A DNA stretch of 64,000 nucleotides from Octopus vulgaris (Eukaryota), in assembly GCA_951406725.2 (NCBI GenBank), contig OX597821.1, positions 82,026,001-82,090,000 on the forward strand, written 5' to 3'. Position numbers and translations under genes: made by a program. The notes below the pieces were generated by a model that ran no database searches, was not told the origin of the DNA, and saw only the letters and a program-made list of their open reading frames with translations. Positions 8,193-47,500 of this stretch are shown here, piece after piece (within the stretch, counting starts at the first letter, position 1; each line of letters opens with the position of its first letter).

Positions 8193-8884
8193 ATATATAT
8201 ATATATATATATATCGTTGATGCAAAACCAATTCCAACAAAATTTAGTCTGCTAAATAGAATCTATGCTTTTTAACTTGACACATTTACACATGGGAATT
8301 TCTCAGAGCAATCACTGCAGTTTATGGCATCATTTTCATAGTAGCACATCTAAGTTCAGTTGGATGTACAAATTGATATGTATGTGAGATTAATTTTATG
8401 TTTCCTGTGTATATACAGATATACATGTATATACATATATATCTGTATATACATATATATCTATATATACACAAGAAACATAAAATTAATCTCACATGAA
8501 ATCGTGACTTTTAGTTTCCTCCAGGCATTTAGTTTAAATTTTCTTTGCATTTTATTTAGAACCATTTTTTTTTACCTTCTTTGATTAAGTTTTTGTTGTA
8601 AAGTGAAGTTTTTCATGTAAACATGTGTGTTGTGCGTTTGTATTTATACATGGTGACTGTTTGTTGCTTTGGGTAGACATGTAAGTAGTTTGTCACTTTT
8701 TACAGGATGTGATTGTGTGTGGTGTTATGTGAGTGATGTATCTTGATATGATGGGTGATGCGCTACATGTGTACATGCATTTAGTTTTGTGATTTGTGTG
8801 TATGAGTGGGGCCAGCCAACATGTATCGTTTACTGACACTATTGTGAGTACAAGTATGTAATAAATTAAGGCATGTTTAGTGTA

Positions 8885-14007: not shown

Positions 14008-15719
14008 TGATGCATTATATACCAACACAGCATACACTAAAATCCATTGGCTGTTGATTATATTTTAGTATTTTTCACATAATGTCAACAAATGTTTCTT
14101 AAATATACACTGGTAGAATAACAGCACTATAAACACATACACTTCTTCAATATGATATATTTTCATCACAATTTGAAATGATTTACAAATACAGCAATAA
14201 TTTTCCTTTTACTAATTTTTGTTTTCCTTATTTTCAATACTGTAACTTATAATGACTTATAACTTTATTCTTAAGAGTCATAAATTGAAAATTATTGTAA
14301 AACTTAAATAACTGAAATATTTATTTACACTTAAAGTAACACATGAATTAACAATACAGCTCAATTGAAGTATAGTAATTATGAGATAAGTATACTATAT
14401 CATGATGAGTTACTTAAATGTGATATATTCATGCCAGGAGAAGGGTCAAAACAAGATCTCTGTTTTGAAGAAGTCTTGAGGTAACTTTTCTCTGCATGAA
14501 AGTCTGCAAATGGCAAATAATTCTGTTCTTCATGAGTTTTCCATGACTGCTATGATAACTTTAACCCTGAGGTCATAATTTCCACAACATTAATTCTCTT
14601 TGCCGATTGGTCAGTTAAACATCACTAATACAGTGATATGCAATATTTATAACCATGAATATATACATGGATTTACTCAAGCCTACCTGCTAGAAATAAC
14701 AACCAAATCAGTAACATAGCTAGTGACGAATAGTGGCAGAGCTGCCCACCCTGGGTAGTGCTTTTATGGGGGTAGCTTTTTAAGAGGGAATCATTAGCAA
14801 TATGATTTTTTATGGGCCCCAGAGGTGGTGGGGAGGAAATTCAAGGGCCAACCCAAGTGGCACCTACTCTAACTAGTCCACTTAACCAAATCCCTCCTTG
14901 CTGTCATACAAAAAAAGGCTATATTGGACAATATAATCCTGGACACAATGAAAAGACAGAATGGTCATTACCTGAACATCTTTGATCATGTCTGATCAAT
15001 CATAACTGACTGGAATAACAACAATAAACATACATTCCCTACTTTGGTGTTCGATTTAACTTCACTGATTTAGCAGAAAGCAAGAATATTAGCTGTCAAT
15101 AGTCTTTGAGTTAAGTTAATAATTCTTACCAAAGTATAATGATTATAACAGTAACACCTTTACACCGACACAAAACTACTGAACTGCAGGAGAGGATATT
15201 ATTGGTTTGGATCATCTAAAATATACGACAGTGACCTATTCTATTAAAACTGTGAATGTAAGTGAATAAAACTAAATAATGATAAGGTAAAGTCATAAAT
15301 AAGAGGAAACTGGAATAGTTGAGTTGGATAAGTTAATTTGTTATTAGGGGTATGGAATCTAATGTTTCTGGGTGGAGGAAATTAAAATGTTTGCCTGCTT
15401 GCAGCCCAACACCAGGTTTTTTTTCCTCCTTTTCTAATCATTAGATGAAAGGCAAGGCTTGAAAGCATTTAGCTTCTTACTTTCCCCATAGCAGACAATC
15501 TTATATTACTCTTCTAAATAATGGTAACCACTAGCAATCAACTCTACCACCCTTTGTATATATCAGGGATGATATACTTGTTCCTGTATATGATCGATAT
15601 AGTTATCTTTATTGCTAAAAACATTTCAACAAGGTTTACATTTACACATTAAAATCGTTTACCTTTCTACTTATAAACGGTAGGTTATTTATTTACCCCA
15701 GCTTTAGAAGAAACAAATA

Positions 15720-15935
15720 TTCTTTTCTACTCTAGGCACAAGGCCTGAAATTTTTGGGTAGGGGTCCAGTTGATTCGATTGACCCCAGTATGCAACTGGT
15801 GCTTAATTTATCGACCCCAAAAGGATGAAAGGCAAAGTAGACCGTGGCAGAATTTGAACTCAGAATGTAAAGACAGACAAAATACTGCTAAGCATTTCGC
15901 CTGGCGTGCCAACATTTCTGTCAGCTCACCTCCTT
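15720..15935 (-). mobile_element. SINE family B
   Basis: Colinear with 7135-7366 over the head and body. Confidence 0.8.
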
Positions 15936-16155
15936 AGAAGATACAAATATTAGAATGATACAGACTATGTCTTATCTATTAAATCTAATACAGTATTTAA
16001 TTATTTTCACTGACCAGTAGGACAAGGAACTCAGAACATACCACACACATTTTAGATATTCTACTGAGAAAAAAGGCTTTTCTCATAATGTATGCATACA
16101 TAAGCACACAAGCACAAATATTTCTATATCTGTTTTTGTGTGGGTGCACATGTGT

Positions 16156-16869
16156 AGGGTGTGAATAACACCTACATTGCTAGAAATAAGAGCTAAAATG
16201 CTCCAATGTTGTTACAAAGCACATAACATATACTCTGATAGGGGCTGCAGTCACCCTGAATACCAAACTGAGAATTCCCTAGACTGGCCGGCCAATTTCA
16301 GCTATTTCTGTAGCCATTGTTAGTAAAGCCAGCTCATTCAGTTGATTCCGGCCTACTTCACCTATCAGAGTATATATATTTACCATAAAAATCTATGGAT
16401 GATTTAGCAGATTGCTAATGTGTATTCAAAAAATTAATAGAAACAGCAGTTTGCAATGTTATACCATCAAGGAAAATTATAGTCGTCAACTAAACTTGAC
16501 TCAGGTTATGAATAACACTCATACATTTTTATGGCGAATATATATATATATATATATATATATACTACAAAATTAGAAAATGGAGAAACATACTTATCCC
16601 ATGGTGGGTTGAATTTTCAACCCCTATCTCATTTTATATATATATATATATATACTCTGATAGGCGAGGTAGCCCAGAATCATCTGAATGAACTGGCCTT
16701 ACTGATGATGGCTATGGAAATAGCTGAAACTGGCTGGCCAGTCTAGGGAATTCTCAGGTTGGCATTTGGGGTGATTGCAGCCCCTATCAGAGTACATGTT
16801 ATGTGCTTTGTAACAGCATTGGAGCATTTTGGCTCCTATTTCTAGCAATGTATGTGTTATTCACACCCT
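16156..16869. mobile_element. Inverted pair of about 217-nt hammerhead-bearing repeats (16156-16372 minus; 16653-16869 plus)
   Basis: The two units are reverse complements of each other; each contains a TACTCTGATAGG...CCTATCAGAGTA inverted repeat enclosing a hammerhead; the spacer contains (TA)n. Confidence 0.8.
16697..16748 (+). ncRNA. Type I hammerhead ribozyme, near canonical; predicted cleavage after GUC at 16743
   Basis: Stem I CCTTA/TAGGG; core CTGATGA plus an extra T; stem II GGCTAT(GGAA)ATAGCT; GAAA; stem III ACTGG(CTGG)CCAGT; triplet GTC. Confidence 0.8.
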
Positions 16870-16959
16870 TAATCAAGTTTTGTTGATGACTATAATTTTC
16901 CTTTACAGTATAACATTGCAAATAGCTATTTTTATTAATTTTATATATGTGTGTGTATA

Positions 16960-17044
<85 letters not shown>

Positions 17045-46779: not shown

Positions 46780-47500
46780 TCAGATCCATTTGTTCTGTCT
46801 TCCTTCCACTGTCTTTGGCACTTGACATTCTTATAGAGAACCCATTTCTTGTCACTGGTCACTATTTGGTCCAAAAAAGGCTCATTGGTGAGACGTGACA
46901 ACAAAAAAAGAGCACACATTCACTCTCTGTGCACAATTAGACTTGAAGAGTTTGTGAGGAATCCATTGACCCAATTTGCTGACTTTTCTGATGGCACACA
47001 GGTGTCAATGAATGATTGAATGACCAAATCCAAGCTTCTCTGCTAATTTCTCAACAGTTACAATAGGATTTTGTTCCACCCGGGTTTGCAGAACATCCTC
47101 ATCGAGCTCTACATATCTTCCAGGACAAGACTCATCTTCTAGGCTGTAGTTTCCAGCTCGGAATTTCTGGAACCACTGTTGACACTGGCTTACACTTATT
47201 GTCTGATCCCCATATACTGCATTAATATCTCTCACACTTTCCATTGCATTATTACCGTTATTGAACTCATAAAGCAAAATGAGCCGAATGTGCTCTTTTA
47301 CCACTTGCATTATAGCTTTGAAAAAAATAACTGTTAAAATCGAACTGCACTCTTCCAAATTTGCACTAGGTAAAAAAACAAGGTAAAATTACTACCTGCT
47401 TTTATAGCAAGTTGATGCAGGTAGTTTAACTCATCTCCCTCCGACTTTTAGTTCATGCAATTAAAAAAAAAATCCCATCATTTATGGGATTACCCAATAT
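46780..47500 (-). mobile_element. Mariner relic, 5' half with TIR
   Basis: KEHIRLILLYEF...QWFQKFRAGNYSLEDESCPGR, later IVTSDKKW; TIR TATTGGGTAATCCCATAAAT. Confidence 0.9.

Follow-up and report, generated by a model that had tools for sequence, protein, structure and literature searches.

The hammerhead motif found in the window, which is the whole 64,000-nt stretch of Octopus vulgaris DNA analysed here, most likely belongs to a decayed copy in a family of 350-nt non-LTR retrozymes, spread via the reverse transcriptase (RT) of Penelope-like elements (PLEs) and now probably inactive. The motif is real, the element carrying it is of a known kind, and the anatomy of the family fits non-LTR retrozymes, which are already known in a mollusc. 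The flagged motif itself is ordinary, and the interest is carried by the insertion record of the family and by a predicted lock/dimer switch. Hundreds of dispersed copies, belonging to four subfamilies, provide countable insertion scars, and these suggest that PLEs primed within a template that was circular or multimeric. A literature search (without supplements, subscription papers and Repbase/Dfam) found no paper on this repeat family or on cephalopod retrozymes, and the main text of PMC7229834 does not mention octopus, squid or cephalopods.

Structure and predicted folding of the hammerhead motif

The core, the three helices and the GUC triplet were all present where the first-pass annotation of this DNA had placed them (Table 1). 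A hammerhead descriptor matched the window a single time, with 15 bp over the three helices, and 200 dinucleotide shuffles of the window yielded ten matches of at least 9 bp and none of at least 15 bp. Scoring with Rfam, which the annotation had proposed, gave no hammerhead match in this region even at E up to 10. The best Rfam scores in the family were 29.8 bits (locus L111) and 23.6 bits (L106) against Hammerhead_3, below the cut-off of 48.5 bits, and the gathering cut-off of the Hammerhead clan (CL00010) was reached neither by the window copy nor by the best family match.

Table 1. Features of the probable retrozyme locus and of the window (positions of the window; strand as +, - or. for none)
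Feature	Position	Strand	Remark
Inverted copy	16156-16518	-	366 nt, longer than one unit (unit 111 round to 126)
Forward copy, 5' start	16520-16548	+	unit 233-261; 93% over 29 nt
Expanded internal (TA)n run with ~70-nt insert	16549-16643	.	sequence
Forward copy, main part	16644-16942	+	unit 251 via cleavage site to 199; 90.3% to majority
Rod domain carrying the hammerhead	16653-16794	+	
12-bp inverted repeat	16653-16664/16783-16794	+	closes rod domain
Type I hammerhead, whole	16697-16748	+	core and helices; family covariation
Helix I	16697-16701/16744-16748	+	sequence and descriptor
CUGAUGA core	16702-16708	+	sequence and descriptor
Extra U	16709	+	directly before helix II
Helix II	16710-16715/16720-16725	+	
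GAAA	16726-16729	+	
Helix III	16729-16733/16738-16742	+	near-palindromic
GUC	16741-16743	+	predicted cleavage after C16743
(TA)n/(TG)n microsatellite	16943-17040	.	directly after forward copy 3' end
Mariner transposase HTH fragment	47008-47388	-	Pfam HTH_48, E 9e-20

The GNRA loop II described earlier is present in this copy. Its closing U-A pair was created by C>T at 16715, and the family majority carries a 6-nt loop II instead. A second change of the CpG type, C>T at 16725, accounts for the G10.1-U11.1 wobble, as had been suspected. The extra U after A9 is ancestral in subfamily A (50 of the 50 parsable among 52 similarity-found copies) and fixed there; it is absent from 26 of 35 parsable copies found by pattern. 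Hammerheads with an extra base in this position are known, and in a viroid hammerhead U was the favourable base, raising trans-cleavage 3-4-fold (PMC3705267). Altogether, the 142-mer that had been flagged differs from the subfamily majority at 19 sites, ten of them CpG-type.

Folding, also proposed in the first-pass annotation, did not return the hammerhead. The predicted minimum free energy (MFE) structure of the 142-mer (z -2.0) contains helix II and lacks helices I and III, the hammerhead fold has a predicted probability of ~6e-4, and a rival helix, 16692-16698/16736-16742, dominates the predicted ensemble. The window copy is therefore predicted to misfold, which is to be read as a hint, since nearest-neighbour models ignore tertiary contacts and the folding had no known-active control.

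The 350-nt unit and the two copies in the window

The 142-nt rod had been taken for the RNA unit and its 12-bp repeat for the terminus. Neither reading is supported: homology passes both ends of the 142-mer and the unit is 350 nt long; the repeat is an internal stem whose sequence differs between subfamilies. Copies map onto the unit in circular permutation. The unit has a GC content of 0.41 and folds as a circle with z -5.5 against 100 shuffles, and it lies within the size and composition of retrozymes (~150-450 nt, GC under 50%, highly self-paired).

The window harbours two copies. The inverted copy was found as an inverted repeat 260 nt upstream; it is 89.9% identical to the subfamily majority, and its hammerhead core is dead (G5>A, G8>A). 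The start of the forward copy at 16520 abuts it head-to-head. Within the forward copy, a ~70-nt insert (16561-16635) in a (TA)n run separates the start from the main part and appears to have arrived later than the copy. The two halves of this insert match pieces at unrelated loci (L071, L072 and L190). The 3' end of the forward copy at 16942 is one of the two 3'-end hotspots of the family, and the microsatellite that follows was presumably the insertion target. Both copies share three non-majority variants, in helix I, helix III and the rod, as would be expected if one insertion event had copied one template twice. Li, Clavereau and Pollet (2026, 10.64898/2026.07.22.740005) require two consecutive intact hammerheads of an active element, and the window has no such pair.

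Two further observations concern copy number around the locus. Positions 16156-16212 of the window have a far higher contig depth than the rest of the unit, as if this motif were shared with a more abundant repeat, which a local motif search did not explain. A very high-copy short repeat lies just upstream of the locus, at 15700-15950.

Family size, subfamilies and age

The copy-number search suggested by the first-pass annotation revealed hundreds of copies in the genome, in at least four subfamilies. The 142-nt query gave 52 matches from the 40 candidates that were scored out of 99, and each of the longer queries brought up between 742 and 1503 first-look candidates. Three exact patterns of 17-18 nt occurred at 66, 119 and 18 places, against none for reversed controls. 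For the first pattern, 44 of the 46 loci examined were family members, and 12 of its 66 matches fall in one array; of 23 similarity-found copies, no more than 7 contain an exact match to it. Several hundred copies is thus an estimate of the floor type. Alignment A1 left out, from the 46 loci, two chance 17-mer matches (L097, L135), as well as the truncated or gapped copies L093, L099, L101, L102, L112, L124 and L131. The majorities of the four subfamilies A to D are 350, 353, 351 and 354 nt long and share 78-90% identity with one another. Subfamilies B to D were first found with a 17-mer including the start of helix III, whose conservation is in part selected by that search.

Across 117 loci, identity to the subfamily majority has a median of 84-88% and a maximum of 93.8%. 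Young copies were found neither in the four similarity searches (40 candidates scored in each) nor among 20 loci drawn from the 119 pattern matches, which showed 76-95% identity on short pieces and 87% for the best pair. A 33-nt core pattern had one exact match in 2.8 Gb. The forward copy of the window shows 13 CpG-type changes over 14 CpG sites. It had been suggested that the motif may be active or recently active. Given the maximum identity, the CpG decay and the predicted misfold, that suggestion is not supported; the window copy is probably no longer active. In this assembly, where collapsed or unscored young arrays are possible, the family appears to be extinct or dormant.

Diverged family members also occur in sequencing runs labelled as two other organisms. 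No RNA record was listed as carrier of the locus sequence, and two presumed-RNA runs contained only diverged, low-depth contigs over the hammerhead part; neither result says anything on expression.

Conservation and covariation of the hammerhead

All four majorities keep CUGANGA, GAAA and NUH. Position N7 varies in the 50 parsable of the 52 similarity-found copies (A 32, C 10, T 7, G 1), and the other six core positions are kept in 46-48 of these 50. At position H17, subfamily A has C and the other three (B, C and D) mostly have A; both GUC and GUA are natural cleavage triplets (PMC1636495). In the four majorities the strands of helix I are CCUUA/UAAGG, CCUUA/UAGGG, CCCUA/UAGGG and CUUAA/UUAAG.

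The hammerhead structure named above is paired to 80.9% on 90 natural copies, against 24-41% for slid controls. Covariation on these copies was 0.185, compared with 0.160 in shuffles, none of 500 shuffles being as high; by the number of pairs changed on both sides, the copies did not stand out from the shuffles (301 of 500). Both-side swaps comprise 12 A-U in helix II, 6 A-U in helix I and, at the tip of helix III, 14 A-U versus 50 C-G. The C-G to A-U swap at this tip keeps the palindrome, at a place where a hairpin could not pair. RNAalifold predicted no pairs on the 90 copies, which are short and noisy, and recovered helices II and III unaided on 24 natural full monomers. The four majorities have 101 pairs in common, of which 17 are changed on both sides and 24 include a broken cell. 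Such changes inside the supposed 12-bp terminal repeat mark it as an RNA stem and not a transposon end. Pair counts are inflated by related copies, and the independent events are few subfamily swaps.

Compensatory changes in helices I-III, whose absence the first-pass annotation had named, next to a lack of cleavage, as refuting its proposal, were observed. Together with the conserved core and the three helices, they support a type I hammerhead of the retrozyme/Penelope type.

Insertion anatomy and mobilisation

The anatomy of the copies was recorded at 117 de-duplicated similarity-found loci, leaving out overlapping or duplicate loci, the array at C25 and loci found by the 17-mer. The copies are circularly permuted, and 126 of their 147 terminal 3' ends fall in two windows of the unit, 45 at 136-165 and 81 at 186-218. 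Both are AT-rich stretches inside the unit and are common to all four subfamilies, whereas a single 3' end of the 147 lies 15 nt or less from the cleavage site. Later interruptions account for some of the apparent 3' ends and were filtered out only within the flank of each locus. A microsatellite was present within 30 nt of 94 of the 147 ends, compared with 517 of 3830 random flank windows (13.5%). Head-to-head inversion was found in 41 of the 117 loci, and 80 segments are longer than one unit, reaching up to 2.5 units; no longer array of the 350-nt unit was found among the loci examined. That copies span the cleavage site is in part selected by the queries, and the clustering of ends is also seen in loci found with the 142-nt query. 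If a cleaved linear monomer had been the template, the copies should be bounded by the cleavage site; the data presumably require a circular or an uncleaved multimeric template, primed internally.

The insertions show 5' truncation, partial tandems, an inverted 5' copy and microsatellite bias. The last three of these features are also described for PLEs (Craig et al. 2021, 10.1101/2021.04.23.441226). No ORF is attached to the unit, as judged from the unit and the flanks of the loci. The unit therefore appears to be non-autonomous, and the insertion scars suggest a PLE as its mobiliser.

The genome possesses an abundant intact PLE family, with numerous open frames for a 775-aa protein carrying RT and GIY-YIG domains (12,005 first-look candidates). 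There is no DNA similarity between this family and the 350-nt unit. A tblastn search with one PLE protein on 158 loci, with flanks of 0.8-2 kb for most, detected no RT + GIY-YIG ORF flanking the unit. PLE fragments occurred at three distinct places (L032/L013, L046 and L173), each downstream of the unit, separated from it by microsatellite or unrelated DNA and not joined to it. In four members of the PLE family (L082:775-4682, L083, L084 and L085) a CxxC-type linker precedes the endonuclease, and an overlapping upstream frame of 557 aa had no Pfam match. The descriptor found no canonical hammerhead in these members; its single match was weak and lay in a flank.

Proposed life cycle and predicted lock/dimer switch

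A life cycle can be proposed for the family. A tandem locus would be transcribed and its RNA cut after GUC or GUA, probably best as a double hammerhead formed via the palindromic helix III. Ligation would turn the monomer into a circle, where pairing between the core CUG and the 3' strand of helix III is predicted to lock the ribozyme. A PLE endonuclease would nick a (TA)n target, the nick would pair with one of two AU-rich sites in the circle, and reverse transcription would run round through the ligated cleavage site, yielding permuted copies that are 1 to 2.5 units long. A template switch would produce an inverted 5' copy such as that in the window. Copies would afterwards decay, mostly at CpG.

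The predicted lock arises from a repeat of the core letters at the start of helix III. Its P is 0.95-1.00 in four of four majority circles, in which a single hammerhead lies 2.1-6.1 kcal/mol above the free ensemble. In predicted dimers, the double hammerhead is cheaper than two single ones in three of the four subfamilies: 3.1 versus 12.3 kcal/mol in A, 0.5 versus 4.8 in B and 4.3 versus 10.5 in D. It is the MFE structure in B only, and in C it is disfavoured (7.8 versus 4.3 kcal/mol). Axolotl retrozymes are known to depend on dimers for cleavage (PMC7229834), and the same has been proposed for PLE hammerheads (PMC4209133). Which retroelement moves animal retrozymes, and why their circles do not cleave again, were raised as open questions (PMC7229834). 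We tentatively suggest, as an interpretation with less than even chances, that the fossil family records the step of transposition in which a PLE RT, primed internally on a circle, copied past the junction, together with a lock/dimer switch that would spare the circles, since monomer circles would lock and a double hammerhead would open in tandem precursors only. If true, the switch would explain how animal retrozyme circles avoid cutting themselves.

The same family could have been copied from something other than a circle, such as uncleaved linear multimers or through template jumps, or by a LINE. PLEs themselves make partial tandems and inversions (Craig et al., 10.1101/2021.04.23.441226), any uncleaved template would account for copies that run through the cleavage site, and the predicted lock would slow the cleavage of linear RNA as well. 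However, all four subfamilies have the two internal 3'-end hotspots, which are more in line with internal priming than with one fixed RNA end, and the hammerhead is conserved across subfamilies, implying that cleavage mattered; we regard this origin as unlikely. Less likely still is that the unit is the pseudo-LTR (pLTR) of an autonomous PLE and the copies its 5'-truncated ends. The anatomy is of PLE type, PLE hammerheads often have an unpaired base before helix II (PMC4209133), and Xenopus retrozymes derive from pLTRs (Li et al. 2026, 10.64898/2026.07.22.740005), but upstream of the copies there is only more unit, the helices are full instead of the minimal PLE form, and the three PLE places among 158 loci (one PLE protein, flanks mostly 0.8-2 kb) are all downstream and cut off from the unit.

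A functional ribozyme, currently used at its locus, is an improbable reading of the window copy, although all core nucleotides and the three helices survive and an extra U is favourable in the viroid hammerhead. Judged by the same rule, twelve of the 52 similarity-found copies are intact, a number that decay alone could leave. The CpG changes and the competing helix count against function, and the partner copy, dead and on the other strand, would allow no dimer in cis. Hardly credible is a 142-nt MITE with 12-bp terminal inverted repeats and a TA target duplication, in which the hammerhead would be incidental. The inverted repeat is perfect, TA stands on its flanks, and the first search matches looked sharply bounded; yet homology continues on either side of the 142-mer, the stem differs between subfamilies by compensated changes, and family ends do not fall at the 12-bp repeat. 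A decayed copy of a retrozyme family spread by PLEs accommodates these results best.

Comparison with known retrozymes and Penelope-like elements

Metazoan non-LTR retrozymes measure 350-390 nt in mussel, 330/350 nt in axolotl and 220-245 nt in coral (Cervera and de la Pena 2020, PMC7229834). Similar to those described there, the octopus family has a type I hammerhead, a self-paired 350-nt unit of low GC, partly tandem copies, no ORF, and PLEs in the same genome. In contrast to them, it is old and dispersed, with 1-2.5 units and no long array found. Helix III has 4-5 bp with a palindromic tip, against 1-2 bp in the metazoan retrozymes of that study, and the circle is predicted to be self-locked, whereas most metazoan circles (some from mussel excepted) are predicted there to leave the hammerhead free. 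Axolotl retrozymes were cleaved in dimers by experiment (PMC7229834), whereas the octopus family is known here from sequence and folding prediction.

Like the vertebrate retrozymes of Li et al. (2026), for which mobilisation by PLEs was also proposed, the family has many monomeric dispersed copies. That proposal is based on co-occurrence and pLTR homology; here it is based on insertion anatomy, and no pLTR homologue was found. The type I motif, the extra base before helix II and a palindromic helix III suited to dimers are shared with the Penelope/Neptune pLTR hammerheads (PMC4209133). Unlike these pLTRs, the unit has no RT/GIY-YIG ORF attached, and its helices II and III are of full size, not those of a minimal motif.

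Other hammerheads and repeats

Twelve head-to-tail units of 112 nt, deletion forms consisting of the hammerhead only and 90-100% alike, were found at L033:2400-3750 (G000:C25). The array sits within one ordinary copy, and seven of the 12 units carry U4>C in the core. It is probably a local DNA amplification; a mini-retrozyme origin is also conceivable.

A genome scan with Rfam Hammerhead_1, in which 73 of 263,217 candidates were scored, gave six matches, none related to the unit. These other hammerheads above the Hammerhead_1 cut-off lie at L149-L154, of which L150, L151 and L154 belong to one family with an insertion of ~60 nt in helix II. In the window itself, a Pfam search on 23 of the 91 long frames detected the mariner fragment alone. 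The window also contains a near-perfect palindrome of 116 nt at 8382-8497.
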